Of a stretch of DNA of 64,000 nucleotides, positions 2,814 through 43,938 are shown piece after piece. Numbering within the stretch: the stretch's first letter is position 1; each line of letters opens with the position of its first letter. Position numbers and translations under genes: made by a program. The stretch comes from Cyanidioschyzon merolae (taxonomy: Eukaryota), in the NCBI GenBank assembly GCA_000091205.1, contig AP006491.2. One strand, given 5' to 3'. The notes under the pieces were generated by a model. It was not told the DNA's origin. It worked only from the letters and a program-made list of their open reading frames with translations, and made no database searches.

Positions 2814-4781
2814 ATGAACACCCCAGAGCGCACAACGTCAGAGGTCGAACGGCGGCCGAGCGCCACCTCTTCTGTCTTTTTGGACGCTGAGGAGAGTGTC
2901 ACTGGTTGGGACTCGGAGACGGCTACCCCCAGGCAGCAACTATCCGTTGATGTCGAAAACCTGAACAATACGGAGCTGTTAGCGGACGAGAGAGCGACAT
3001 CAGTATCGAGTGCTCCTGAACAAGCTGAACGGCAGACCGCAGGATTTGCCTATGATGCCGAACTACACGACCAGTACGTGCAGCGCATGAACTGGTGGTG
3101 CATGATTTTCTGTTGTCAATGCGGTGGTGCATGCTGTGGCTGCTTCTCGAAGAGCGATGTGCGTAAGAGTCGCGAGAGTATTCGTCGGGAGACCTTGGAG
3201 CGCCAAGCGGTCATGATCGGTGAGTTGCTCTCAGCCTACGAATATGACTTATTCAACAAGGAGAAAGAGAACGAGACCTCCTCGACCCAGCGCACACCTT
3301 TTCTCTCGCTGTTTCCATTTTCGCCGCGTTCAGGTAGGCGCCAGGAACAGCCAGACGAGCTCGTCGTCCGCCGTGAGCTCATGAAGCGTTTTGCGCTTTT
3401 ATTCGATCGTTCCCCGGGTTCTCGAAAAACTCGCAAATCGTACCCTGTCTTGCTGCCGCAGGACTGGCTACGCGGCGTTCAGCTCTACATCCTGCTTGGT
3501 GCTTTTGCTGATGAACCTGACCGCATGCAGAGACTGTGCATGAACTTGCCCCCTGTTTCGGTTGCACGCATCCAGTGGCTTCATCACTGGATGCGATTTG
3601 CAGCAGCCCCGCTGGGTCAGTATCTCCTGATGTTGGAAAGGCCGGCATCGGCTTTCATGAACTACCCAAAGTCGATGATTCACGCTCTAAGGATGCGCTC
3701 CGTCCCAGACTCGGCATTGCTAGCGGTTGCGCGACGCTGCAGAGTCGGTCTTGACCGGATTCTGCTCGCCCAGATGCGGTCGCGTACCTTTCTACCCGCT
3801 TTCATCATCGTAGAAGATCCCGTGACGGACAGCTTGGTAGTTTCCGTGCGCGGAACAATGTCCGTCAGCGATGCCTTTACGGACCTTGAAGGAACCCCCG
3901 AGCACTTTGATGTGCGCTGCTGCGAGGGATCGCCCGTGGGCGCAGGCGTCACGATAACAGGTACTGCGCACGGTGGTCTACTGAGATCAGGCGGGAACCT
4001 CTGCAAACGAATCTTACCAGTTTTGAAGCGCGCCGTCGAACGCCGGGGCGGGAACACGCGCATTATCATCACTGGTCACTCTCTCGGCGGCGGTGCTGCT
4101 GCACTGCTTGCGATCATGCTGCAGGCCCACTTGCCGAATGTATATGCGGTTTGCTTCGCTCCACCGCCAGCAGTGAGTATTGAAGCGGCGGAGAAATGCA
4201 AGGCGTTCATGGAGTGCGTTGTACGGGGGAACGACAGCGTTCCAAGAATGTCTTTGCCTGCAATCGCTCACTTCTTGCGCATCGCTTATTTGGGGAAGTC
4301 TCGCCTGAGCCGGCTGCAGAAGCTGGCATTGTTTTTCCGTTGTGGCTGTTTGTGCAAGTTTCCACCAGAGATCCGCGACGCCGTCTCGCACGTGACGTAC
4401 TCGCTTGAGAACCGGCGCATGTTTGTGCCGGGCCGAGTATTTTACATAACAGAGCCGTCAACGAGAAACACATGTGGAGACAATTCATGCTGTGGGCCTG
4501 TCTGTCTCATTGGAGCATGTGAACGCCAGTCCGCCGAGGCTGAAGCACAGGAAAGCCTCCTCCACCGCCGTCTGATTCGCGAAATTGATGCCAAGGAGCT
4601 CCGATGTCTGGTTGGCAGGAATGGCATTATCGAGCATCACATGCCTTGGGGTTATGAACGCGCGTTGCGAGCGCTGCTTCGTGAGGCGAATGCACCATCC
4701 CTCCGACGAAAGGAGCTAGAGGAGCGCAAGCGGATCAGCGAGCCTGCGAATCCGGATGATCTCCCCCTGGAGTCTCGTTAG
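2814..4781 (+). CDS. Class 3 (fungal-type) lipase domain protein, sn-1 diacylglycerol-lipase-like alpha/beta hydrolase
   Basis: A long uninterrupted ORF with the GHSLGGGAAALLA nucleophile-elbow motif (GxSxG) typical of lipase_3, preceded by a Cys-rich stretch (CMIFCCQCGGACCGCF). The ORF-track start at 2748 is GTG, and the first in-frame ATG is at 2814. Confidence 0.75.
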   Translation: MNTPERTTSEVERRPSATSSVFLDAEESVTGWDSETATPRQQLSVDVENLNNTELLADERATSVSSAPEQAERQTAGFAYDAELHDQYVQRMNWWCMIFCCQCGGACCGCFSKSDVRKSRESIRRETLERQAVMIGELLSAYEYDLFNKEKENETSSTQRTPFLSLFPFSPRSGRRQEQPDELVVRRELMKRFALLFDRSPGSRKTRKSYPVLLPQDWLRGVQLYILLGAFADEPDRMQRLCMNLPPVSVARIQWLHHWMRFAAAPLGQYLLMLERPASAFMNYPKSMIHALRMRSVPDSALLAVARRCRVGLDRILLAQMRSRTFLPAFIIVEDPVTDSLVVSVRGTMSVSDAFTDLEGTPEHFDVRCCEGSPVGAGVTITGTAHGGLLRSGGNLCKRILPVLKRAVERRGGNTRIIITGHSLGGGAAALLAIMLQAHLPNVYAVCFAPPPAVSIEAAEKCKAFMECVVRGNDSVPRMSLPAIAHFLRIAYLGKSRLSRLQKLALFFRCGCLCKFPPEIRDAVSHVTYSLENRRMFVPGRVFYITEPSTRNTCGDNSCCGPVCLIGACERQSAEAEAQESLLHRRLIREIDAKELRCLVGRNGIIEHHMPWGYERALRALLREANAPSLRRKELEERKRISEPANPDDLPLESR

Positions 4782-6480: not shown

Positions 6481-6743
6481 GGCACTGCATGCTGTATTTT
6501 TTTGTGGACAAAACGTTTACTTAGGCCAGCGTTCTCCGATTATGCGCTTTTTTCTTTTCTTCCTTTTTTGTGTGTTTTTCAGTGCGCGGTGAGGTATCCA
6601 TCAACCCCCTACTCCCATGTTCCATTACCTATACTTCGTCTCGGATATTCTGGTCGTTTCATACGTCCTATCGTGTGCCGAGCCTACCGAAAGCGACAGC
6701 AATAGCGCCTATAGCGCCGGTGCGGTCACTGCATGCTGTATGT
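6481..6743 (-). mobile_element. 5'-truncated copy of the 3' end of a non-LTR retrotransposon (LINE 3' UTR plus poly(A)), with a 16-bp target-site duplication
   Basis: Bases 6497-6727 are about 85-90% identical to 33228-33470, the 3' UTR of the LINE at 33.2-37.5 kb. On the minus strand it ends in A7 (TTTTTTT at 6497-6503 on plus). It is flanked by near-identical direct repeats GGCACTGCATGCTGTA (6481-6496) and GGTCACTGCATGCTGTA (6727-6743). It lies about 170 bp upstream of the POLA1 ATG. Confidence 0.6.
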
Positions 6744-13170: not shown

Positions 13171-13450
13171 GCATGAGCATAATCATAAATATAAATAAGC
13201 TTGAGCACGAGCACGAGCACGAGCATAATTCTAAATATAGACATAAGCACGAGCATGAGCATGAGCATAATCATAAATATAAATAGAAACATAAGCACGA
13301 GCACGAGCATAATTCTAAATATAGACATAAGCATGAGCGTGAGCATGAGCATAATCATAAATATAAATAGAAACATAAGCACGAGCACGAGCACGAGCAA
13401 AAGCATGAGCATAATCATAAATATAAATAAGCTTGAGCACGAGCTTGAGC
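13171..13450. repeat. AT-rich minisatellite of about 3.3 units with an ~84-bp period, built from (AGCAYG)n runs alternating with AATCATAAATATAAATA or AATTCTAAATATAGACATA modules
   Basis: Read directly: the period between 13246, 13330 and 13414 is 84 bp. The block is bounded by AATAAGCTTGAGCACGAGC at both ends. Confidence 0.8.
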
Positions 13451-28705: not shown

Positions 28706-29458
28706 ATGCGGTTTGCCTGCTGGGAGCGACTCCTCGCAAGCGCGAGACAGTCTGTGAACGTGCTTACGTCCGCTCGAGGTACGCGGTTTTGTCACAGACG
28801 TGCCTTCTCTGGACGCATGCCTGTCGGTTGGGACACAACGGCACGCAAGGCACTTGCGATGAACGACATGTTTATGAGGTTTCGTTTTCAGTATCGGAGT
28901 GGCGCTATGTACAGTTCCTTCTCGACATCACAAGGAGAAACCCTATTCAGTGCAGAGCGAGTTTCAGACGCAGCAGTCTGGCGACGACGTCTGGAGCAGC
29001 GTCGGCGCCGACAGTTTTACAGCGCGTTGGGCGGCGTTGTTGGCGCAGCGTTGATGACGTTCGCGGTGATAAAAACAATGGAAGACAGCATGATCTTCTT
29101 TTACACGCCGACGCAAGTATTGGAAGAATTGCCGCCAACAACTGCAAACAGACGGATGCGTCTGGGCGGGCTGGTTGTCAGCGGTAGCCTGCAGCGCCAT
29201 GGCAACGGAGATGTTGAATTTGAGATCACGGACTTGGAGAACGAAGTTCTTGTCACGTTTAATGGGTTTCTACCAGACTTGTTCCGCGAAGGTCAGAGCG
29301 CTGTGGTTGAAGGATATATTTTGGAGCGGGAGAACGATGGACGACCGCTGCGATTCAAGGCCACTAGCGTCCTTGCAAAACACGATGAGAAGTACATGCC
29401 GGCTCAGGTTCGCAGTATGCTGGAAAAGAACCGGCCGACTCGCAGTGACACGCCCTAG
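28706..29458 (+). CDS. CCME: Cytochrome c-type biogenesis heme chaperone CcmE (System I), with an N-terminal presequence-like extension
   Basis: A TM anchor followed by a CcmE domain (FFYTPTQV...RLGGLVVSGS...FEITD...VLVTFNGFLPDLFREGQSAVVEGY...RFKATSVLAKHDEKYMPAQV) with the heme-binding His in the KHDEKY context. The track start at 28673 is TTG and the first ATG is at 28706. The N-terminus is Arg-rich. Confidence 0.8.
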   Translation: MRFACWERLLASARQSVNVLTSARGTRFCHRRAFSGRMPVGWDTTARKALAMNDMFMRFRFQYRSGAMYSSFSTSQGETLFSAERVSDAAVWRRRLEQRRRRQFYSALGGVVGAALMTFAVIKTMEDSMIFFYTPTQVLEELPPTTANRRMRLGGLVVSGSLQRHGNGDVEFEITDLENEVLVTFNGFLPDLFREGQSAVVEGYILERENDGRPLRFKATSVLAKHDEKYMPAQVRSMLEKNRPTRSDTP

Positions 29459-30500
29459 TGTCGACATCTCGCACTCCATGAAAGCTTAAATGCACAAGAG
29501 CACGGGAGAAGGAAGCAGCGTGAACCCCGAATGGTGAGCATTGCGTGCCGCTACTGGCGTTCTGCTGCTATGGAGCCAAATCCGCAGCCACGGAACCTAT
29601 TCCGGCTGCATCCTCTGAAACATATGTCGCTCACACAGCACTAGTTCTCAAGGAGAGGCCTGCGTCCTCAAACAGCGACAGCGCGTATTTTCTTAGAAAA
29701 CATCCGGACTTTCGACTGATCAGCACCGCGGGATCGCTGGCGAACTGCTGGTATTCTGCGCCCGGCTTGATCGTTATCAACTGCATCCGCAAATCTCTTT
29801 ATTCGATGTGACGCCATGCGTAGAGCAGTTTCAAATAGGAAACTTTGCGGATACCTAGAGTAAGCCGAAACTTGTTGGGCGTATTCGCGCAGAAAATAGC
29901 GGTATCCAATGCTTTCAGGGCTGTAATCTTTCAAGTGTTTCTCAGCGTGGCTTCAGAACGACAGGAATATGCAGGGCAAACGAATGATTAGGGTTGCAGA
30001 GCACAAGGAAAGGCCTCTGTGCTGTTTCCGCTGTGCGTGGATGCCTCGCGCACGGGCCATGCTTTCCGCGCCGACGCAAACACTATCGTTCGTCGCGGGT
30101 CACCGCTGTCGCACTTGTTGGAGAAAACGGCGTATTTTCCTCGTCACGCACTGGAACCGAACGAACCACGTTTGGAATCGCTGGCGCGACGCTCCCAGAC
30201 GCAACAAACTTGATGGGAAACCTTCGAAAGGCTCCGCAAATTTTGCAGTGAAGCACTAGTCGTTGTCGGCGAACGCGTACAAACGTGTTTCTTCCAGGTT
30301 GGAAGATGCTGCCACAGCGCTTACAGGTGTGCCGCTTGACATTCTCACAGTCCAGTTGAAGGTTCACCCTCGTAGCGATCTTTCGCATGAGCAGCACATA
30401 CGAGCGCGAGACCGCCGATAGGCTCTGTTGCAACGCCCTGGCAGCGCGCCACAAGTGTGCGACTCGGGCTTCTGCATCCCGTGAACGAGTGTTTTTGTAG

Positions 30501-30545
30501 TTGTTCTGCTTGTTCTGCTTGTTCTGCTTGTTCTGCTTGTTCTTC
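30501..30545. repeat. (TTGTTCTGC)n microsatellite with a 9-bp unit of about 4.5 copies
   Basis: Read directly. It lies about 100 bp outside the outer end of Fanzor-like copy A. Confidence 0.9.
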
Positions 30546-30639
30546 TGGGATGAAGAAGAGCATTGCTTCGCCATGCAGTGTCCCTACTGAGCGGACTAGA
30601 AGCGGCAGTTTTCAAAGCGTCGTTGGTGGTCACAGCGAA

Positions 30640-33225
30640 ACGCTGTTCGAAAGTCGCACGTCGCCGACCGTGCACGGTAGTAGCGGGAAACGCGCGTTCG
30701 ACATAGCGTTTCCAGCTGACGTGTAGACGCCTCCCCGTCTTTCTCGACCGGCCACCGACTACTGGTTTCAACTTTTTCTCATATAGTTCCACTTTGAGAG
30801 GTTGCCCCACAAGTCCGCTCTTGTCGTCTCTGGAGGTCTTCTCTCCAGCACCGCACATCTCCTTACATTGATAGCGGCATTAAAGTCAAGATTCACGAAC
30901 TCCATACGTTTCTTGCCATCGTTCGTTGTACTTACTAGTGCAAGTAGCCCTCGCACTTTCGCCCTCCTTTCCATTTGCTCTTCGGTCAGCGGTCCGTACT
31001 TTTTTATATCCTCAGGGCTCCGCTGACACTTTTCCATCTCGACCCTTTGAAGTGTACATCCCAGTTCATGGTGTGTATAGGATGTTCGGAACTCATCTAC
31101 AGTTACTGTGACGAAACGCCATGCACACTCTTTGTACGTTCTTGTCGTTGGAGCTGGTGTAGTTCCTTTTTGGGTCATCAAGCGCCCTGCTCCGTACGCT
31201 ATTACAAGCCTCTGACTTTAATCCTCCTTCAAGGCGCTCAACTCATTGAAACAATTCACGAATGAACGCTGCTTCTGACAATACAAGTTCATACGCAGAC
31301 GAGCCCACCGGGGCTTTGTATACTCTTTCCACAGGGCATCCCAATGCGCCATGCGAACTTCCATGAATTTCCAAAAAGCATCAAGGTCCGCTCCTCGGCT
31401 CGTCACCTCGCTCAAAGCTTCCAGGTGCTCCTTCATTCCTGCATTCCATGTCTCAGTTTTTTTCCTTGCATTCATGATTTCCGATTCTCGATCGTATCTC
31501 GCTCTCGAGAAGCTCAAAATTCGCATGTCTTTCTGACGTAAGTTACCATCAGTATCATCTTCCACACGCCTGGGCAAAGCGATGGTTATGATATTTGTGT
31601 TTCCAGGGTCCGCGTCAACGACAAGGTCGTTATGCTCCACCTCCTGCGTCGCAAGTTCCGCTTCCTTCTTATCTTCATGCTTCGCCGCGGCAGCCATACA
31701 GTCGTTATCCTCCACTTTCTGTGTGGCAGGATCCGCCGTCTTCATATCTTCATGGTTCGCCGAGGACGGAACTGGACGATCTCTCTTCAACCGCCGATAG
31801 TGTATACACAAGGCTACTCCATCGGTTTCGATCAACCCAGTAAGTACCTTTTGTTTGCTGGCTTTGAGACGTTTGAAATCGAAGAGACTCTTCCAGTACG
31901 TCTCCCGGTTTTCACCGGAGAATTCCTCCCTGCTAACACTGAACTCCGGACTGATCCCCTTCATGATGCCGTAAAGGATTCTGGAGTCGACAGTCACAAA
32001 ATGTGACTTGATGTTGCACATTGGAACCAGGTTGAAGCGCTTCCCCATTAGGACAGCCTTCCGTCTCTCCCACTCTTCATTGTTTTCCCCACTCAGCTTC
32101 ATCTCCGCTTTGCGTTCGAGTTCACGGTCCAAAAACACGAAGTACCTCAAGATGAGGAGGCAGTATCTTTCCTTATCTTTTTTCAACTCTGATACCTTTT
32201 CTGATGGATTCACCAGCCCCAAGACTGCACGGTGCTCTTGTATAACCGCACGGATCACAGAAGCTTCATTCGTGCTCTCGTTTGACGCCTTCTTCTCGAC
32301 AAATTCGACCTCATCTTCACGCTTGCGATCTTTCATGATGCCATTGATAATCGCCCATTTTCCATTGCGGGATAGGCCCGGGTAGAGTGCAACCACGGCG
32401 CGTATTAAGAAACGTTCGAGGTTCGTTGTCAAATGGTTCTTCAGGTTCGTGATGCACTTCATCGCCCCATAGTCGTAAATATCGCGGTCACCCCTGCATC
32501 GAGTACCGTTGAAGCTGTAGAAGGGATGTTTTTCGTGGAGGGCACGCACCAGCTAATGTTCCGTCCGCGCTCTCTCTGTGCCAAGCATCAGGTGACGAAT
32601 AAACGTCTTGTCGAGAAACTCGTCCGCAACCTCGACTATTTCCATGTGCGTCACGTCTTCGTACATCTCCCTCGCGCAATGCATCAGTTCTGACGACGCC
32701 TTGACAATACTCTTGGAGTACGAATCGAGACGTTTTTTGATAGCGTCTCGCAACTCTTCCCTGTAGGGATCCTTGATATGTCCAAGAAGGAAGGATTTCA
32801 CCGCCTTCTCGTTGTACAGCCGTCTTTCTTGCCGCCTTCGACGTAGGGCCTCCCCCCTTCGGTTCCTCTTCTCTTTCTTTTCTTCTGGACTCGGCACTGT
32901 TTTTTGTTTTTTTTCTGGCAGCCGGCGACCTTGGGCCCCCAGGATCGTGCACTTTCTTTTCCATAACTTTCCTTTTTAGTATTTTTGAGAAAGAACGCTC
33001 TTTGAACCCTTCTGTTATATGCTGCGAAAAAACACTTGACTAGACTTGTTTGAGAGCTGACACAAAAATGAACTGAAAACTATACGTTGCCAAGATCTCA
33101 ACGGGAATCCGACTTTTACAGCTGAACAACACGCTACTGATCTCAATCGAGTTTCCCTTCAACGGCGACATACGCGTCGTGTCTCATGCCTGCCAGATCC
33201 CCCAGGTGCACTCACCGGGCGCGAC
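30640..33225 (-). mobile_element. TnpB/Fanzor-like element, copy A (decayed), forming the left arm of a large inverted repeat
   Basis: This is the reverse complement of 37493-40100, with about 95% identity across the ORF and about 80% in the 3' flank. The inner boundary at about 33222-33225 matches B's inner boundary at about 37493-37495, and the outer homology fades at about 30640. Confidence 0.7.
30768..32964 (-). pseudogene. TnpB/Fanzor-like RuvC nuclease gene, copy A, disrupted by a frameshift, TAA and TAG stops and a 6-nt deletion
   Basis: Compared with copy B it has an extra A in an A7/A8 run near 32905 (an N-terminal frameshift), the shared in-frame TAG at 32550-32552, GGG to TAA at about 31215 (the ALKED* site), and an in-frame 6-nt deletion (RWASKKGT to RLMTQKGT). 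The RuvC-like motifs are retained: [16 protein letters not shown] and LDFNAAINV. Confidence 0.7.
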
Positions 33226-33227
33226 TC

Positions 33228-36200
33228 TTTTTTTCATAGACAAGACGTTTACTTGTGCCCGCATTCTCCGATTGTGCGCTTTTTCTTTTCTTACTTTTTT
33301 TTTCAGTGTGCGGTGACGTATCCATCAACCCCCTACCTCCATGTTACATTACTTGTACTTCGTTTTGGATATTCTGGTCGTTTCATACGTCCTATCGTGT
33401 GCCGAGCCTGCCGAAAGCGACAGCAACGGCGCCTAAAGCGCCGGTGCGGTCGCTGCACGGAGACAGAACGGCTTTTCCATACCACAGAGGGCGTCGGCTC
33501 GAGGCATGGTTCACCCGACGTAGAATCGGGTCTCGTCGTCAGTTTGAGCTCGGATAGTCTGCGGATGCAAGCTTGTCTTCGCTGCACGATACGCTGGAGA
33601 AACTTGGCTGTTAGGATACATCCTAGGAGCCGCCTCTCTCCTTCCTGGTCATGCATGGAATGCGTTGTTGTCGGTTGGCAATGCGAGTTTGTGCTTGACA
33701 CCCACCACTGTGGGTAGGCGCAGAAAGCGCACTGGGCCCGTGTGCGCATCCGATACGCTGGACCTCATGCCTAGAACGTAGCATGTGAGTTTGTTCGCCA
33801 CTAATGAGCGCTGAGGCTCGGTTAGCGGACCATCAGTTACCAGTGCTACACTCCGAGTGAGTGTCCGGCCTTCGACAATCACGGTGATGTCCAGCTGCTG
33901 CTGTCCCCCAAGGAGCTCGCTGCGCTCCTGCTTCCAGCGCGGGCAATGTAGGCCTAAATGTGTCAGCGTCTCGGGTATCTCGTCTCGACAGCAGGGACAG
34001 TGTGATTCCCAGTGCGATTCCAGTGTTCCTATACGGCTTAGAGCCGGTGCTGCCAGCCGGAAGCCACCAACGCGGATTTTGGCGAGCCACTGGGTACCTC
34101 GAGCAAGTCCCGGGAATTCCAGCCTCCTACCAGTACTTGCATGTGTATGCTAGGTTGTAGTTCCGGTATAGAGTCAAGCCGGCGTTACTGGCGCGACTGG
34201 TTCCGTGTATACGTTCCCATATGGTTGTTTGGACCGTTCGCTTGAGGCGGCGGGAGCCTTGTGCATTTCTGGGGAACGATTCGAGCGCATTTTCGCCTAA
34301 GAGGCGCTTCAGCCAAATATGCGTTGATTTCATCCAAGTGTTCTTGCGGTGCGTTGGGGTTTGCATGAAACTCCGACTGAACCAGGTGCGCATGGTGGGC
34401 CCTTTGGCCCATATGCGTGCCCGGCAGCCTGCTGCTATCGCTTCTGTCGAGGGTATTTGGAGTTCAAGTCCGAGTGCCAGCGCGGTGGTTGCTCTGCTCT
34501 GCACTGAGCATCAAACAACGACAACGAGTCGCATTGCCCTGTTGGCGGCTGTCTGCGGACGCGAGGCATTTGTGTGCTTCATGCCGCACCACCCAGCACC
34601 CCAGGTCGCAGGCTGGATGATACACATCCTTCGTGCGCTGGTACGAATTGCTATGCAGATAGAGGGGTCGGATGGGACTGGGCGTGCGATCGCTGTACGT
34701 CTATGCATCTTGGCGATCATCTCGTCAACGTGTGCGTTTTCGTCGAGCGTCGGCGTTAGACAGACCCCCAGGTAGCGATAGTTTTCCCCGATCGGAATTT
34801 CCTGATTCTGCAACCGCCACGAGCGATTGCGAATGCGCTGCGAGTCTCCATGGATGGCCATGACGCCGCACTTCGATGCTCCTACGTTCATCTCCCAGCG
34901 ATCGGCCCAGGCGCTGGCTTGTTGCATGCTACCCGCAAGCGTTTCCGGGGCGGGTGCCAACAGCACTATATCGTCCGCAACTAGACGGCCTGCGAGGCGG
35001 TTCCTATGTGAGGGCTCCTCATCGGGCATCTCCCCAGTCTATCCACGGCACCTCAAGCCCGTATTGTCTGCAGTTTTTCAGCGGATCGTTGATGAAGATG
35101 TTGAAAAGGAGCGGGGATGCGCGCTCGCCCTTTTGTAGTCCACGGCGTATTCTTATACAAGGGGTTCTTGAGCCGTCGCCCAGTCGGATGCGCATCCACG
35201 AGTCTGCATAGAGCGCACGGAAGAACGCTAAGCACTTTCCGGAGACTCCGGCTCGTTCCATCTTCAAAAATAGAGCCTCGTGCGGGACCGTGTCAAAGGC
35301 CTCTTGGAAGTCGATGAAGCATACGTAAGTTGGTTGTTGGCCGCTAATGGAGCGACGTTGCGCCACTTCAATGAGGGTCAGGGCATGGTTCATGCACTCA
35401 TCGCGGCTCCGGAATCCAGCCTGTTCTGGGGCGAAGAACTTGCGTTCCTCGAGGCCTCTCTGGATCCGGTTCGTGAGGTTGGCGCAAAAGTAGCTTCATG
35501 ATTGACGGGATGAGGCCGATAGGCCGGTAGATGTTCATGTCTTTGTGTGTAAGAGTCCTTTTTGAGGATCGGTACGACCTCGGCAGTCCTCCGTACATCT
35601 GGGATGCACGCTTCTTCAAACATGCGTTGAATGAGCTCCAGAAGGCGTTTGCATAAGATTGTGTCAGGTTCATCTGGTATCGATGGTGTCCCTGTTGTCT
35701 CGTATTTTGGGGTCACCAGTTTCATCCACTCCGCAGGGATACCGTCGATGCCAGGTGTTTTGCGGTTGCTTGAGCATAGTAGGGCCCGAACAGATTCAGG
35801 CCAGAAGATTGGCTCGTTCCATTCCGGTACCGGGTCGAGGCGCGGTAGTTCTGCAGCATATTGGTGCCAATAGATTCGGTCTTGGCAGTTCCCAGTTGCG
35901 TCTTCATGCAGCTCTATCCCGTGGTCCGTCCAGGCCTCATTCACTGAGGCACGCTCCGTCCTCAGCGCTTCCTTATAAACGATTGATGTGAGCCGCAAGC
36001 ACTTTTTTGGTGGGTCCAGTCTCGATCGAATGTAGCGCTAGGTCTCATCTTCGTTGGTGCCCTCGAGCATAAATTCCGTCAGGGAGTCGATTTTGCGGTT
36101 TCGATCCTCTCGTTTGTCTTCTCTGGAACGTTTCTTCTTTCTTTTGATAGCGTCCTCATGTTGCGCCTGTAGCGCCGGTAGCGCTGCCTTCGCTTCCTTG

Positions 36201-37470
36201 TCTCCGGCGTTGGCGCGTATGGCGGTGCGGTTGACGATCTTATAGAGTCGGTGGCATTCATCATTCCGAGTTTTGGTACGTCATTCCAGGTACCGCGGTT
36301 TGCAACTGTTGTGTTCTGGTGCAAGCAGTCCCAGTTCTCTGGCAATCTTCTGATTCCCATCTACATACTCGCGTGCCAATTGGTCAAAAGATTTGTATGC
36401 ACGGCTTTTCGGATCTTCAGCGCTGTGAGCAGGTGCCTGGGTTTGGCGACGTTTTTCTTGGGTTCCCGCTGGGGTGCCCTTTCGGGGGATCACTTGCGAT
36501 GGGCTCGTTTGGGGGGGTCTTCTTTCTATTCTTCTGTTTTTTCTTGTCGGTCTTCCTCGTCTTCTTCGGGCTCTTTCCTGAGCTGCTTTCTCTGGATATT
36601 TTGCATCTAAGTGGATCATGAGGTTTCTGTGCCTCCTTCTCCGTATCTGGTTGGGTCTCTTTACCTAATGCAGAGTCCTCCACTTGTATCAGTTCTTCGT
36701 TACAGTACTGGTAATTCGAAATCTCGTCGTCTAGTATCGAGGCCGTCCCACAAATATTCCATGATACGAAACCTATCGAGTCATAGCGCATACGGGAATA
36801 GGAATAGCGCTACGGTACTCCAGAGATACGTTGTCGATTTAGATACACGCTTCACGAGGTGTGTGAACGTACATGCCACCATTGCCCTCTGCATTCCAGT
36901 CGTTCATTGAGTGTCTGCCGCAGCGCTAGCGCGGAATCAGAAGTACATTAGTAAAGGTCGATTCGAATGCGACCTTTATCTTGCCGGACGCGTGTACCTC
37001 TCCTCAACCACAGGGGATACTCTACGAACCAACCTTTCAGCGGCTTCGTATCCGCTCCCCAAATACATAGGCGGGCAAGTCGCTTACTCCACCTTCGACA
37101 GTGAACATACTGGCAGCCGTCTTCAAAAGTATCCGCCGAGATTGTTTCCAAAGTTGAGGTAGGTACGCAAGGTAGGAGGTACAACTGAGCCCGAGTTCGA
37201 GGATAGATCCAGTATTTGCGCCGAAACCTGCAGCGTTGATTCGGGAGGGGCGAATGACTGCTCAGAACTCTCGTCAATATTTTCTGGTGCTACTGCCTCC
37301 GCCCCTCCGTTCGTTGCGGTCAAGGTCCCTGGCGTGGGCTTCCTTCCCCGTCGCTTAAACACCCCGCGTTAACCCATTTTCAGAGCTTCTCTGGAAAATC
37401 TAGACCTCTTAGGCGAGGGTGGTGTGTGGGGCTTTTAAGATAGTGGTTCTTTGATAAATAGTTTGCGACT
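33228..37470 (-). mobile_element. Non-LTR retrotransposon (LINE) of about 4.2 kb with a decayed single APE+RT ORF and poly(A)
   Basis: Read on the minus strand from 5' to 3'. It begins with an APE-like N-terminus (FVSWNICG at about 36760). RT motif 0 follows (KTPGIDGIPAEWMK), then motif 1 (VVPILKK) and motif 2 (YRPIGLIPSIMKLL). Next come motif A (FIDFQEAFDTVPH), motif B (RGLQKGERASPLLFNIF) and motif C (FADDIVLLA). These lie in at least three different frames, so the ORF is frameshifted. A C-terminal CCHC (HCPCCRDEIPETLTHLGLHCPRWKQER at about 33900) and a ~420-bp 3' UTR end in A7 at 33228-33234. The flanking hexamers GCGACT(C/A) at 33221-33227 and 37464-37470 are a possible short TSD. Confidence 0.7.
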
Positions 37471-37492
37471 AGTTTGCATCACGCTCGGTGAG

Positions 37493-40100
37493 TGCACCTG
37501 GGGGATCTGGCAGACATGAGACACGACGCGTATGTCGCCGTTGAAGGGAAACTCGATTGGGATCAGTAGCGTGTTGTTCAGCTGTAAAAGTCGGATTCCC
37601 GTTGAGATCTTGGCAACGTATAGTTTTCAGTTCATTTTTGTGTCAGCTCTCAAACAAGTCTAGTCAAGTGTTTTTTCGCAGCATATAACAGAAGGGTTCA
37701 AAGAGCGTTCTTTCTCAAAAATACTAAAAAGGAAAGTTATGGAAAAGAAAGTGCACGATCCCGGAGGCCCAGTGTCGCCGGCTGCCAGAAAAAAACAAAA
37801 AACAGTGCCGAGTCCAGAAGAAAAGGAAGAGAAGAGGAACCGAAGGGGGGAGGTCCTACGTCGAAGGCGGCAAGAAAGACGGCTGTACAACGAGAAGGCG
37901 GTGAAATCCTTCCTTCTTGGACATATCAAGGATCCCTACAGGGAAGAGTTGCGAGACGCTATCAAAAAACGTCTCGATTCGTACTCCAAGAGTATTGTCA
38001 AGGCGTCGTCAGAACTGATGCATTGCGTGAGGGAGATGTACGAAGACGTGACGCACATGGAAATAGTCGAGGTTGCGGACGAGGTTTTCGACAAGACGTT
38101 TATTCGTCACCTGATGCTTGGCACAGAGAGAGCGCGGACGGAACATTAGCTGGTGCGTGCCCTCCACGAAAAACATCCCTTCTACAGCTTCAACGGTACT
38201 CGATGCAGGGGTGACCGCGATATTTACGACTATGGGGCGATGAAGTGCATCACGAACCTGAAGAACCATTTGACAACGAACCTCGAACGTTTCTTAATAC
38301 GCGCCGTGGTTGCACTCTACCCGGGCCTATCCCGCAATGGAAAATGGGCGATTATCAATGGCATCATGAAAGATCGCAAGCGTGAAGATGAGGTCGAATT
38401 TGTCGAGAAGAAGGCGTCAAACGAGAGCACGAATGAAGCTTCTGTGATCCGTGCGGTTATACAAGAGCACCGTGCAGTCTTGGGGCTGGTGAATCCAGCA
38501 GAAAAGGTATCAGAGTTGAAGAAAGATAAGGAAAGATACTGCCTCCTCATCTTGAGGTACTTCGTGTTTTTGGACCGTGAACTCGAACGCAAAGCGGAGA
38601 TGAAGCTGAGTGAAGAAAACAATGAAGAGTGGGAGAGACGGAAGGCTTTCCTAATGGGGAGGCGCTTCAACCTGGTTCCAATGTGCAACATCAAGTCACA
38701 TTTTGTGACTGTCGACTCCAGAATCCTTTACGGCATCATGAAGGGGATCAGTCCGGAGTTCAATGTTAGCAGGGAGGAATTCTCCGGTGAAAACCGGGAG
38801 ACGTCTTGGAAGAGTCTCTTCGATTTCAAACGTCTCAAAGCCAGCAAACAAAAGGTACTTACTGGGTTGATCGAAACCGATGGAGTAGCCTTGTGTATAC
38901 ACTATCGGCGGTTGAAGAGAGATCGTCCAGTCCTGCCCTCGGCTGCGCCCGCGACGAAGGATGAAGATAAGAAGGAAGCGGCTCCTGTAACGCAGGAGGT
39001 GGAGGATAGTGACTTTCTCGTTGACGCGGCGAAGGATGAAGATAAGAAGGAAGCGGCTCCTGCGACGCAGGAGGTGGAGCATAACGACCTTGTCGTTGAC
39101 GCGGACCCTGGAAACACAAATATCATAACCATCGCTTTGCCCAGGCGTGTGGAAGATGATACTGATGGTAACTTACGTCAGAAAGACATGCGAATTTTGA
39201 GCTTCTCGAGAGCGAGATACGATCGAGAATCGGAAATCATGAATGCAAGGAAGAAAACTGAGACATGGAATGCAGGAATGAAGGAGCACCTGGAAGCTTT
39301 GAGCGAGGTGACGAGCCGAGGAGCGGACTTTGAAGCTTTTTGGAAATTCATGGAAGTTCGCATGGCGCATTGGGATGCCCTGTGGAAAGAGTATACAAAG
39401 CCCCGGTGGGCTCGTCTGCGTATGAACTTGTATTGTGGGAAGCAGCGGGCGTTCGCGAATTTGTTCAATGAGTTGAGCGCCTTGAAGGAGGATGGGAGTC
39501 AGAGGCTGGTAGTGGCTTATGGAGCAGGGCGCTGGGCGTCGAAGAAAGGCACTACGCCAGCTCCAACTACGAGGGTGCACAAGGAGTGCGCAAGGCGTTT
39601 TGTTACAATACCTGTAGATGAGTTCCGAACATCGAATACAAACCACGAGCTGGGATGCACACCCCAGAGAGTGGAGATGGAAAAGTGCCAGAGGAGCCCT
39701 GAGGAATTTGCAAATTACGGACCGCTGACGGAGGAGCAAATGGAAAGGAGAGCGAAAGTGCGAGGGCTACTTGCACTATTAAGTACAACGAACGATGGCA
39801 AGAAACGTATGGAGTTCGTGAATCTTGACTTTAATGCCGCTATCAATGTAAGGAGATGTGCGGTGCTGGAAAGTAGACCTCCAGAGTGGACACGAGAGAA
39901 CTTTTTTGGATAACCTCCCAAAGTCGAACTATATGAGAAAAAGTTGGAAGCAGAAGTAGGTGGCCGGTCGAAAAAGGCGCGGAGGCGCCTGCGCGTCGAC
40001 TGGAAACGTTTCGTGTAAGGCGCGGTTTTCCCGCCACTACTGTAAACTGCCGACGTCGTTCGACTTAGAGCGGCGTTGGCGGCTGTCCGTTCAGGGTGGC
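37493..40100 (+). mobile_element. TnpB/Fanzor-like element, copy B (the more intact one), forming the right arm of the inverted repeat
   Basis: A 246-bp 5' region, an ORF at 37739-39913, and about 190 bp of 3' flank that is still homologous to copy A. Homology ends about 35 bp upstream of the SMC1 ATG at 40135. Confidence 0.7.
37739..39913 (+). CDS. TnpB/Fanzor-like (IS605 OrfB-like) RuvC-fold nuclease candidate, 725 codons, interrupted by one in-frame TAG at 38147-38149
   Basis: A RuvC-I-like motif ([17 protein letters not shown]....DG), a segment resembling the TnpB strand that precedes the zinc ribbon ([20 protein letters not shown]), a degenerate zinc-ribbon region (H..GC...C), and a RuvC-III-like DxNAAxNI motif ([12 protein letters not shown]). 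A basic NLS-like N-terminus ([31 protein letters not shown]). An internal 75-bp tandem duplication ([15 protein letters not shown]...) sits just before RuvC-I. The ATG is at 37739. The assignment is by motif pattern only. Confidence 0.5.
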
Positions 40101-40134
40101 CTCCTGTGCGAGCTTGGCGTCGATACTTGCACAT

Positions 40135-43100
40135 ATGGGTCGCATACAGCGCCTAGAGGTAGAAAACTTCAAGTCTTACGGTGGCAAGGTGTGCATCGGA
40201 CCTTTCGTGGAGGGGTTTACGGCTGTCATCGGACCTAACGGCGTTGGTAAGTCGAACTTATTAGATGCCTTGGGGTTTGCGCTAGGCTTGCCCGCCCGCT
40301 TTCTTCGGGCGCAGCGCTTAGCAGAACTTATCTATCGCAAATCTGACCATGATGTTGTTCATGGGCAGGAAGTTGCTGGTGAACATAACGTGGACGGTGC
40401 AAACCAGTCCCACCGTGAAACGGCGGTGGCAGGGCACGCAGACGGCTGCGCTAGCGTTCGTCTCTTTCTGGAGGTTGCGCCCGACCAGGTGCTCATTTTT
40501 GAGCGTTCCATCGAAACGAAAGGTGTTGCGAGCTACCAGGTGAACGGTCAACCGCTGAGCTCCGAGGAATATGCGGATAAGCTGGCAGAACACTCGATCT
40601 TAGTGAAAGCTCGCAACTTCCTCGTGTTCCAAAACGAAGTGGAAGATATAGCGACAAAGTCGGGAAAAGCGTTATCTGCGCTCTTCGAAGAGATATCGGG
40701 ATCGGCCGAGTTACGCAATGAGTACGATTCGGCCTTGGCGGAGGTTCGCAAGGCCGAGCAACGGCTCCATTTGTGCGCCCAGAAAAAGAGGGGCCTCCTG
40801 GCCGAAAAGAAACAGTGTCGCGCGCATTGCGATGAAGCTGAGCGTTACAACCAGCTGCAGCAACAGATCGCGAAGATCAGGAAGCTTCGCGTGCTGTTCC
40901 AGCTGTTTCATTTGAAGAAGGATGATTCCGAAGCTGAAGAAAGCACGCAGGGACTCGAACGCGAGTTGGAAGCTCTGCGAGCACGAAGAGTTACCATCGC
41001 CAGCGACCTGGAAGACCAGAAACGGGCTCTCGCCAGCATGCGCCGCGAACAAGCCGCCCTCGAAAAGCGGCGGCAAGCACTCGAGTTATCCCTCGAGAAG
41101 AATCTGATACAGCAAGCAGCTAAACGAAGCGAAGCTCGCGCTGCGGAGAAGCGGCTCTCGATGGAGCAGAAGGCCCTCGACAACCTTCGCACCAATCGGA
41201 CGCGATCCAGGGAGGAGATTCATGCGCTGGAAAAGGCGCTTGCCGAAGTTGGAGAAGCGCTGCGTGCTTTGAACGAAGAAGAGGAGCAGGCGTTGGCAGA
41301 ATTGCAAGCCGCTCACGGAGTGGATTCCTCTGCAGTTCGCAGGTTACGTGATGAGGCGGTCGCGAGCACTGCGAGCATGCGTGAGATGCTTACCACGGCC
41401 GAGAGAGCAACGGCTGCGCTACGCGCCATGCACAAGACGGAGGCGCAGAAGCTCGCGGCCTTAGAACGACGCTTTCGCGAGCTGGAAATCGATCGTGATC
41501 GTCTTTCCATGCAGATCGAGAAGATTCGGGCAAAAATCCAAGACGCGGAGAGAAATTTGGAAGAGGCCCGCATCGCAGACCAGAAGGCGCGACGGCGGTC
41601 CAGCGAACAGGCACAGAAACGCGAGGCGCTCGAGAGGGCGGCCCAGCAGTATCGCGAGCGTCTGCTAGAACTTCGCTGTGCACGAATGGAGTCCGAAAGA
41701 GAGCGAAGATTCCACGAAACCTTAGATCAAATCATGCGTCTGTTCCCTGGCGCTCGAGGTCGCATCGTGGATATCTGCCGGCCCGTCCAGCGACGCTACG
41801 AAGAAGCCGTATCTGTCATTCTGGGCAAGCTTGGAGATGCGATTGTCGTCGATGACGAACGTACAGCAAGCGAATGCATCGCTTACTTGAAACAGCAACG
41901 TGCGGGCACGGCTACGTTCTTGCCCCTTGCTGAGATTCGTCCCGCGCCCATTGATGAGAGCTTGCGTGGTATTGGTGGCACTGTGCGGCTCGCAATCGAT
42001 GTACTCGAGTTTGACAAGTCATTCTTCCCGGCCATTCAGTATGTTGTCGGAAACGCCTTAGTTTGCGACAGTTTGGATGAAGCACGCCATGTTGCGTACG
42101 GCGGCAGTCAGGTTTCACGCATCTGCACAATCGATGGCACGCTGATCCACCGTTCTGGGTTCATTACCGGCGGCGCGGAATCCGATCAGGGTGCGTCGCG
42201 CACGCTCTGGGAGAATGAACAGGCCGTCTCTCTCAAGCGGGAATTGGATGAAGTTTTGCTGGAGTTAGCGAAACTTGGTCCAGTAGATTCGGCACAAGAG
42301 CGCAATGAAGCTGAGCAAGCCCATGAAGTGCTCCTCAGTACTCAAAGACATCTCGAGTATTTACGACACGAGCTGCAACAAAATGAGGAACGTGCTGTCA
42401 AAGTCAGCTCCCAGCTGAATGCGCTTCACGAACAAGTCTCCAAAGCCAAGGTCAGCGAGGAACAATGCCGGCATCAACTCGAACAAGGCGTCGCAAATGT
42501 ATCCCAGATCAAAGAAAGAATCGAACGCGCAGAGCGAGAAATACTCGGAGATATTTCCCCGCAGAGTATTCACCGAAACGAAGAGTTCCGCGAGCGTCGC
42601 CTGGCGCTGACCTCCCAGCAAGCCAAACTGCGCGCTCGTTTAGAATACGAATACGCCAGAGAAGCAGAAACCAGCGAGCAGGACCTCGTCGAGCGCGTCC
42701 AAAAGGCCACCGCAGCCAGAGCTGAGCTGGACACCCAGATTGAACGCCTAGAGCGTGAGCAGGAAACACTCGAGCACAGTATCCGGGAGGCACTGCAACA
42801 ACAAGAGCATATTCAGCAACAACTGGCAAAAATAGAGGAAGCTCTGGAAAAGATGCGCGAAGAAGAGAAGCAGCTGGCAGAAGACATCAGTTCCAAGGAA
42901 AACGCCCTGAACACGCACCGCGCAAACAAGGAGGATATCGCCGAGCGTCTGCGCGCCCTGGAGACTGCGTGTCGCATCGACCAGATCGATGTGCGTGCGC
43001 CCGCGACAGCAGCAGAGGCGGGTCGGGGTCAGGGCCGCGGCGCTGGGCATTCGAGCGATCGCGCACGCGCTCGGACGCGCACCCGTGGTCCATCTGGTGC

Positions 43101-43938
43101 GCAGTCCGAAGACCCTGTCCTATTTGCAGAGGATCTGGATATGTCGCTCTTGAGCGAAGAGCATAGACATGCGAGAAGCCACTCTGAGCGCATGGCCATA
43201 GAGTCGTCGTTGAATGAACAGGAACAAAGTCTCGTGGCAGAGTTGGAGCGCATGGCCCCAAATCTGCGAATCACGCAACAGCTCGATGATATCCAGCAGA
43301 GGCTCGACCTTGTTGCCACCGAGCAGGAGGTCGCTCGTGGCGCGCTTGCGGAGGCAAATCGTCGATGGTTGAACGCGCGCGATGAGCGTACGCGGCGCTT
43401 TCGGGAGTGCTTCGATCATGTCGCCGTCTCCATCGATGGCGTATTCAAAGAGCTTACACGATCAGAGGTACATCCCGTGGGCGGAAGTGCCTCGATCAGC
43501 CTCGAGTCCGCGTCGGAGCCGTACCTAGGTGGCATTCGCTTCAGCGTCATGCTCCCCGCAAAGCGCTTCCGCGAGGTGGATCAGCTCAGCGGGGGCGAAC
43601 GCAGCCTGGCGGCACTGGCACTTGTCTTTGCACTGCGTGACTTTCAGAAGTGTCCGTTTTTGATTATGGACGAGATTGACGCTGCACTGGACCCCGCAAA
43701 CTTAAGCCGCGTGGCGACTTACATTCGAGGGCGTTCCGTACAGTCCCATCCATTTCAAACGATCGTCATTTCGCTTAAGGACCAGTTCTTTGAGTTCGCC
43801 AATGCCCTGGTTGGTGTTTATCGCAACCCTCTCGAAGGTCACTGCAGTCGCATGCTCACCCTAGATTTGGATGCCACTGTCGCAGCGACGAACACTGCGG
43901 ACGCCAAAGAGACGCCTGCAGACTCGTCGCCCAGTTAG
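40135..43938 (+). CDS. SMC1: Structural maintenance of chromosomes protein 1 (cohesin SMC1)
   Basis: An N-terminal Walker A head (MGRIQRLEVENFKSYGGKVCIGPF..FTAVIGPNGVGKSNLLDALGFALG), long coiled coils, a hinge, the ABC signature QLSGGERSLAALALVFAL, Walker B FLIMDEIDAALD and an SMC1-type C-terminus (VISLKDQFFEFANALVGVYR). An ATG at 40135; the track start at 40096 is not ATG. No introns. Confidence 0.9.
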   Translation: MGRIQRLEVENFKSYGGKVCIGPFVEGFTAVIGPNGVGKSNLLDALGFALGLPARFLRAQRLAELIYRKSDHDVVHGQEVAGEHNVDGANQSHRETAVAGHADGCASVRLFLEVAPDQVLIFERSIETKGVASYQVNGQPLSSEEYADKLAEHSILVKARNFLVFQNEVEDIATKSGKALSALFEEISGSAELRNEYDSALAEVRKAEQRLHLCAQKKRGLLAEKKQCRAHCDEAERYNQLQQQIAKIRKLRVLFQLFHLKKDDSEAEESTQGLERELEALRARRVTIASDLEDQKRALASMRREQAALEKRRQALELSLEKNLIQQAAKRSEARAAEKRLSMEQKALDNLRTNRTRSREEIHALEKALAEVGEALRALNEEEEQALAELQAAHGVDSSAVRRLRDEAVASTASMREMLTTAERATAALRAMHKTEAQKLAALERRFRELEIDRDRLSMQIEKIRAKIQDAERNLEEARIADQKARRRSSEQAQKREALERAAQQYRERLLELRCARMESERERRFHETLDQIMRLFPGARGRIVDICRPVQRRYEEAVSVILGKLGDAIVVDDERTASECIAYLKQQRAGTATFLPLAEIRPAPIDESLRGIGGTVRLAIDVLEFDKSFFPAIQYVVGNALVCDSLDEARHVAYGGSQVSRICTIDGTLIHRSGFITGGAESDQGASRTLWENEQAVSLKRELDEVLLELAKLGPVDSAQERNEAEQAHEVLLSTQRHLEYLRHELQQNEERAVKVSSQLNALHEQVSKAKVSEEQCRHQLEQGVANVSQIKERIERAEREILGDISPQSIHRNEEFRERRLALTSQQAKLRARLEYEYAREAETSEQDLVERVQKATAARAELDTQIERLEREQETLEHSIREALQQQEHIQQQLAKIEEALEKMREEEKQLAEDISSKENALNTHRANKEDIAERLRALETACRIDQIDVRAPATAAEAGRGQGRGAGHSSDRARARTRTRGPSGAQSEDPVLFAEDLDMSLLSEEHRHARSHSERMAIESSLNEQEQSLVAELERMAPNLRITQQLDDIQQRLDLVATEQEVARGALAEANRRWLNARDERTRRFRECFDHVAVSIDGVFKELTRSEVHPVGGSASISLESASEPYLGGIRFSVMLPAKRFREVDQLSGGERSLAALALVFALRDFQKCPFLIMDEIDAALDPANLSRVATYIRGRSVQSHPFQTIVISLKDQFFEFANALVGVYRNPLEGHCSRMLTLDLDATVAATNTADAKETPADSSPS

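Follow-up and report, generated by a model that had tools for sequence, protein, structure and literature searches.

The right end of a CMe-1A Fanzor1 element upstream of SMC1 in Cyanidioschyzon merolae: a plausible omegaRNA scaffold and a family-wide association with gene starts

Characterized Fanzor1 systems carry the omegaRNA scaffold at their right end and derive the guide from the adjacent flank (PMC10432273). The Fanzor1 family CMe-1A of Cyanidioschyzon merolae was catalogued by Bao and Jurka (2013; PMC3627910) as about 150 copies, some of them intact, that are ~80% identical to a ~3-kb consensus, lack terminal inverted repeats (TIRs), have undetermined target site duplications (TSDs), and share their 5' part with another repeat, TE-N2_CMe. 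Here, we analyzed a 64,000-nucleotide (nt) stretch of C. merolae 10D (contig AP006491.2; "the window") that contains two Fanzor copies, an inverted copy A and a copy B whose open reading frame (ORF) ends shortly before SMC1, a cohesin subunit gene. By sequence, both copies are members of CMe-1A, an already known Fanzor1 family. A preliminary description of the window had proposed positions 39914 to 40134 as the right end of copy B and as the place where an omegaRNA scaffold would be expected; its observation is partly confirmed and its interpretation partly supported. As a whole, the locus is probably best explained as a CMe-1A tail that combines an omegaRNA scaffold with an SMC1 promoter or leader. 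The part worth following up is the association of the family's right ends with gene starts; the family and the general omegaRNA layout were already known.

Both gene boundaries given in the preliminary description were borne out, the end of the Fanzor-like ORF at 39913 by translation and the SMC1 start codon at 40135 by the 1,267-amino-acid (aa) product, which is identical to C. merolae BAM80064.1. The element itself had been taken to extend to about 40100, some 35 bp before SMC1, but homology with copy A and approximately 40 other insertions ends at 40077, which leaves a gap of 57 nt. In a BLAST comparison of 39500 to 40300 with 84 loci, the largest class of alignments ended at 40077 to 40079 and none continued past 40089 except at orthologous loci. 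Alignment of 43 distinct tails likewise placed a drop in conservation, from 0.7 to 0.9 down to 0.3 to 0.45, directly after ...GGCGTT. The proposed right end therefore divides in two: 39914 to 40077 is the 3' tail of the element, and 40078 to 40134 is host DNA (Table 1), near-identical in nine other strain contigs. Past each right end, the first 9 nt (40078 to 40086 and their equivalents) are poor in A and have G at +2, +5, and +8 (for example TGTTGTTGG, GGTGGTG, and GATGATG); this 3-periodic K-G-K bias could reflect either a target motif or the addition of a short tail.

Table 1. Coordinates of features at the SMC1-proximal element and its inverted counterpart (window positions)
Feature	Position	Strand	Basis or remark
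Copy B Fanzor1 ORF remnant (pseudogene)	37739-39913	+	Translation, family profile, motif columns
Fading codon periodicity with nucleotide-level conservation	39854-40018	+	Overlaps variable-length C-terminal extension
GC-rich hairpin AGGCGC-GGAG-GCGCCU, GGCGCGGAGGCGCC	39975-39990	+	Minimum-free-energy and centroid structures
Hairpin GGCG(CGG)-UUUU-(CC)CGCC	40019-40035	+	Alignments, fold
10-bp terminal hairpin GACGUCGUUC-GACUUA-GAGCGGCGUU	40052-40077	+	Last base is the element right end
Element right end (...GAGCGGCGTT)	40077	+	BLAST end points; alignment of 43 tails
Host flank, 57 nt, from right end to SMC1 ATG	40078-40134	+	Unlike flanks of other copies
SMC1 cohesin subunit gene	40135-43938	+	Pfam SMC_N and SMC_hinge; exact BAM80064.1 match
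Copy A tail	30639-30809	-	nhmmer, 163 bits; alignments; Pfam Rpr2

The tail of copy B is typical of the family and is not degraded. Its score with the family profile is 158 bits, compared with a family median of 159, and its ~80% identity to copy A after the stop codon, correctly noted before and then read as a possible loss of RNA function, is the usual divergence between any two family members. What had been treated as simply noncoding from 39914 to 40018 is, in contrast, often read as protein: in most copies the codon that matches the copy B TAA (39911) is CAA, and many continue to a stop equivalent to 40016 to 40018 (stop positions among copies, 40016 in eight, 39887 in seven, 39911 in three, and 40001 in three, with none before the end in eight). 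A view of the whole 164-nt tail as noncoding and more conserved than synonymous sites was revised for the same reason. Majority frequencies at codon positions 1, 2, and 3 are 0.93, 0.94, and 0.81 upstream but 0.90, 0.88, and 0.89 from 39854 onward, where periodicity is lost. Measured against four-fold degenerate sites (mean pairwise identity, 0.70), positions 39854 to 39964 are clearly constrained (0.83; P about 1e-5), and constraint is modest over 39965 to 40047 (0.75 to 0.79), including 0.79 at 40019 to 40047 (P = 0.03). This nucleotide-level constraint overlaps an ill-defined C-terminal extension, as would be expected of an RNA or DNA element that overlaps the end of an ORF, an arrangement found in TnpB and GtFz1.

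The fold of the tail makes an RNA structure plausible, although one not evolutionarily proven. Copy B reaches -61.9 kcal/mol, with z = -2.29 in sense and -1.59 in antisense orientation (200 shuffles); over 39 copies, mean z is -1.69 in sense and -1.08 in antisense, compared with -0.84 and 0.00 for ORF controls, and the sense strand folds more stably in 28 of 30 copies. A GC-rich inverted repeat pointed out earlier does form a hairpin in the minimum-energy fold, where it sits inside a helix of 39964 to 39971 with 39996 to 40003; its counterpart in the family consensus is weaker (4 bp, GACG-GGGAGG-CGTC). The next hairpin has a conserved GC stem and a hypervariable loop, and the stem pairs in 92.5% of alignment cells, exceptions being mostly G-U. 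The terminal hairpin is found in almost all copies, with sequences and registers that differ between two subfamilies. Its arms have co-evolved between these subfamilies: native hairpins (-15.9 and -10.1 kcal/mol) are more stable than arm-swapped chimeras (-7.6 and -5.7 kcal/mol). It also folds better in sense than in antisense orientation (-9.8 versus -6.4). For the conserved 7-bp stem-loop SL1, which binds RuvC/TNB, several stems are candidates and none is assignable. A raw column-pair covariation scan was rejected as confounded by the two subfamilies. The preliminary description had proposed a covariance or structure comparison of the two 3' flanks; the hairpins of copy B are intact (terminal hairpin, -14.5 kcal/mol), and the terminal hairpin of copy A is broken (-4.9 kcal/mol).

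Homology and anatomy together make an omegaRNA scaffold at the right end of copy B plausible. A conserved stretch runs from the 3' end of the ORF to the right end (constraint above four-fold sites over 39854 to 40047), with variable flank straight after it. The expectation of a scaffold in this position and a guide from the flank was sound (PMC10432273), the flank here being the SMC1 upstream region. In this scheme, the last ~75 to 220 nt of the element, including the variable 3' end of the ORF, would be transcribed from the sense strand as the scaffold, and the transcript would cross the right end so that the first 15 to 20 nt of the SMC1 upstream flank (GGCGGCTGTCCGTTCAGGGT) would become the guide, an assignment we infer from SpuFz1 (PMC10432273).

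The copy B ORF is dead; any copy B RNA would consequently need protein in trans and could be served only by the Fanzor protein of intact copies elsewhere. Its 726-codon frame is broken by an in-frame TAG at 38150 to 38152, a nonsense codon also present in copy A, and closes with TAA at 39911 to 39913. The RuvC residues remain (D at 39104 to 39106, E at 39620 to 39622, and D at 39827 to 39829), but directly before the third Asp, Leu (39824 to 39826) replaces a family-invariant Arg that is kept in 36 of 39 copies; Leu occurs only in copies A and B of the window. Across the family, the frame is open over the last 250 codons in just 11 of 39 copies. Within the ORF, a 75-nt tandem duplication (38950 to 39099) encodes a 25-aa acidic/Lys repeat whose units differ in number among copies (about four in P0004).

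The position of this tail relative to SMC1 recurs across the family. At 21 of 36 distinct insertion sites (loci L005 to L084 plus the window ends at 40077 and 30639), a co-oriented ORF of at least 200 aa begins within 200 nt of the right end, its first ATG lying 2 to 186 nt past it (median, ~55 nt), compared with a baseline of 18% (binomial P = 9e-8). Eight of 10 downstream ORFs that we checked have clear housekeeping domains, namely, G3P dehydrogenase, translational GTPase, NusB/RsmB methyltransferase, phosphoglucomutase, TPR protein, XPD-like helicase, ATP synthase alpha/beta, and FtsZ. This association is statistically strong and apparently has not been reported before. It reflects either targeting of gene 5' ends by the element or the survival of only those insertions whose tail gives promoter or leader activity.

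Given a fixed insertion whose right end is 57 nt ahead of the ATG of an essential gene, transcription of SMC1 most likely initiates within the tail or runs through it. The tail would then double as a promoter or 5' leader, and the same appears to hold for most family members. The junction between element and SMC1 is identical in all nine other strain contigs examined, and a search of these strains for an empty SMC1 site found none (9 of 9 carry the element). Together with the family-wide gene-start pattern, this lends indirect support to the earlier suggestion that the insertion acts as the SMC1 promoter, and the association turns that suggestion into a family-level hypothesis under the targeting and the survival alternative alike. 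A stronger proposal, which we regard as tentative and rather doubtful, is that CMe-1A sits systematically co-oriented a few tens of nucleotides before housekeeping starts with its tail as an outward promoter or leader, that host mRNAs, that of SMC1 among them, begin with or are co-transcribed with the scaffold, and that the guide is the 5' untranslated region (UTR) of the gene. If true, this would amount to a mutualistic or addictive coupling of an RNA-guided nuclease element with essential genes. Should targeting or promoter donation underlie the gene-start association, it would be relevant to the persistence of RNA-guided transposon nucleases in so compact a eukaryotic genome. Genetic work is feasible in C. 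merolae, and public RNA sequencing data exist for it. As for promoter motifs, TATATGAG as a TATA box is speculation only, since it lies within the coding extension, and a scan for bacterial-type promoters and terminators, which is unsuited to a eukaryote, returned nothing.

A different account of the tail, which we consider unlikely, is that it serves only as the cis-acting DNA end for single-strand or rolling-circle transposition (Helitron- or IS91/IS200-like), the terminal hairpin being a DNA signal with no guide RNA involved. In its favor, neither TIRs nor TSDs have been identified (PMC3627910), the 3' end is sharp and bears a terminal hairpin, and the 5' ends are fuzzy: the common core of all copies begins near 37463 to 37478 with another small hairpin, and upstream of it are several recurrent sequence types with fuzzy boundaries, some loci having tandem or partial tails. 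The T/G-rich motif in the flank fits as well, Fanzor1 is known from within Chlamydomonas Helitrons (PMC3627910), and a top-strand single-stranded DNA hairpin would also produce the strand asymmetry of the folds. However, the flanks contain no Rep/helicase or HUH gene, the sole neighboring ORF being an opposite-strand reverse transcriptase fragment, and the terminus reads ...GCGTT rather than CTRR, with the hairpin abutting it (in Helitrons, the hairpin lies ~10 nt before CTRR). G-T wobbles are common in the stem, nucleotide-level constraint extends for ~100 nt more upstream of the hairpin, and a right-end omegaRNA is used by all characterized Fanzor1 proteins. Moreover, DNA-end and omegaRNA functions can coexist.

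Copies with the same 5' type differ in their 5' boundaries (-440, -565, and -640 from the core start). Second full or partial tails occur 0.7 to 2.4 kb from the main one (1873 to 1957 in L067/L082, 975 to 1328 in L074/L075, 1461 to 1628 in L071, and 4307 to 4476 and 6684 to 6859 in L028), indicating tandem or nested insertions.

Several results weigh against the combined scaffold and promoter explanation. For two explicit candidate structures, column-wise covariation equaled that of shuffled controls; the RNAalifold consensus was weak, with one weak stem; and Rfam gave 0 matches at E <= 1 over 29000 to 42000. Pairwise identity in the last 30 nt is 0.58, below that of four-fold sites, and conservation of much of 39914 to 40018 may reflect coding in many copies. 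The left end and a target-adjacent motif (TAM) were looked for and none was definable, the 5' boundaries being fuzzy or within other repeats. Unlike SpuFz1, the family has no CCCC zinc finger, so the RNA-binding surface may differ. Among strains, the tail is not clearly less diverse (pi = 0.004) than SMC1 third positions (0.007); because the values for the tail and for the 57-nt gap (0.010) are close to the latter, the strain comparison is no test of constraint. The 3' half of the ORF (38944 to 39913; L001, L002, and L085 to L089) differs, with pi = 0.064, about nine times the value of the adjacent tail, gap, and SMC1 third positions, suggesting that paralogous copies underwent ectopic conversion or that the metagenome assembly is chimeric.

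The absence of covariation, the near-neutral tail diversity, and the partly coding nature of the tail in other copies could also mean that the segment has no present function: the 3' end of a dead element (variable C-terminal coding extension and 3' UTR) would be decaying, its similarity to relatives would reflect only common descent, and SMC1 would be transcribed from a promoter of its own within or near the 57-nt gap. That copy B is a pseudogene and that so few copies retain an open frame agrees with this explanation. We nevertheless judge it unlikely: 39854 to 39964 is more conserved than four-fold sites, different sequences maintain the terminal hairpin, the copy B tail is at the family median, 57 nt leaves little room for an essential gene's promoter and 5' UTR, and chance does not readily account for the family-wide association with gene starts.

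The protein family deserves separate comment. The Fanzor-like identity given in the preliminary description holds and can be narrowed to Fanzor1: a profile of 43 diverse members matched only Fanzor1 structures in PDB, with RuvC motifs aligned (PpFz1, 9cf0, E = 8.3e-23; SpuFz1, 8gkh, E = 1.6e-16; GtFz1, 9cer, E = 2.2e-10). PDB searches with a single sequence and with a shallow 10-sequence profile gave no match, nor did a local copy of Pfam for the Fanzor ORF and 10 distant members. An AlphaFold model from a 10-sequence alignment was too poor (predicted local distance difference test [pLDDT] score, 42.7) and was set aside. The RuvC D-E-D triad corresponds to the family-invariant D484, E656, and D725 in DPG, VDEFRT, and NRDxNAAxNI motifs. 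Reading of the alignment found no CxxC...CxxC between RuvC-II and RuvC-III in the family consensus, and the CCCC zinc finger appears, from sequence comparison, to have been lost in the CMe-1A clade. We counted 83 close relatives and more than 426 matches in a few hot-spring metagenomes, as well as 3,518 clusters at 50% identity; the supplements of Saito et al. do not mention C. merolae. For this very large, uncharacterized, zinc-finger-less Fanzor1 clade, the analysis supplies a structural map and a precisely placed right end.

Copy A, at about 30639 to 33224 on the minus strand, matches copy B at 97 to 99% identity over the 5' part and at 90% over the 3' half of the ORF, and it has additional frameshifts. 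A co-oriented Rpr2 gene (RNase P subunit) starts 65 nt beyond its right end (ATG at 30574). Copies A (30639 to 33224, -) and B (37478 to 40077, +) thus form inverted repeats with 4.2 kb between them. In another strain, the Rpr2-linked copy (L003) has upstream sequence of the copy B type (98.5% identical to 36396 to 37800), consistent with recombination between copies A and B having inverted the segment that separates them, or with gene conversion. Between the Fanzor copies are RVT_1 reverse transcriptase ORF fragments on the opposite strand (34895 to 36791, -, in the window; 742 to 2638, -, in L001), and this upstream block (35649 to 37478) is seen again beside other Fanzor copies (among them L058, L017, and L057). 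A 195-nt direct repeat with 84% identity (6539 to 6733 and 33263 to 33457) is part of a repeated block that adjoins copy A and is also found in L004, L017, L068, and other loci. Elsewhere in the window, 13189 to 13438 is a complex tandem repeat (spacings of 12, 30, and 42 nt; overlapping 106-nt unit, seven times), probably a coding low-complexity repeat. In distant relatives (L092 to L098, ~38% identity), a DDE_3 ORF lies upstream and a post-stop region of ~205 nt ends in ...GAGTATA; its hairpin has two compensatory pairs between two families (AAGGG/CCCTT versus TAGAG/CTCTA).

Compared with known systems, the locus is closest to CMe-1A as first described: the organism is the same, each element has a single Fanzor1 ORF, the many copies are ~80% identical and without TIRs, and other repeats contain the same 5' region, whereas no RNA, exact right end, terminal hairpin, or host-gene position is described in that paper (PMC3627910). 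With SpuFz1, PpFz1, and GtFz1 (Saito 2023, PMC10432273; Xu 2024, PMC11423790), it shares a homologous protein with aligned RuvC D/E/D in a single ORF and a structured region between ORF end and right end, with the flank directly after. In contrast, the 30-nt TIRs, the CA/TAM beside the left end, and the CCCC zinc finger of SpuFz1 are not detectable in CMe-1A. IS200/IS605 elements with TnpB and omegaRNA differ in that the CMe-1A host is eukaryotic, TnpA is lacking, and a larger, Fanzor1-type protein is encoded, but they too have terminal hairpins instead of TIRs and a scaffold expected from the 3' end of the nuclease ORF to the right end. Finally, the Tc1/mariner-type Fanzor1 elements of the distant relatives P0073 and P0072 encode a DDE_3 transposase, which CMe-1A lacks, and terminate with ...TATA at a TA-like site, yet their proteins belong to the same clade (~38% identity), and conservation extends for ~205 nt past the stop codon to a similarly sharp right end.

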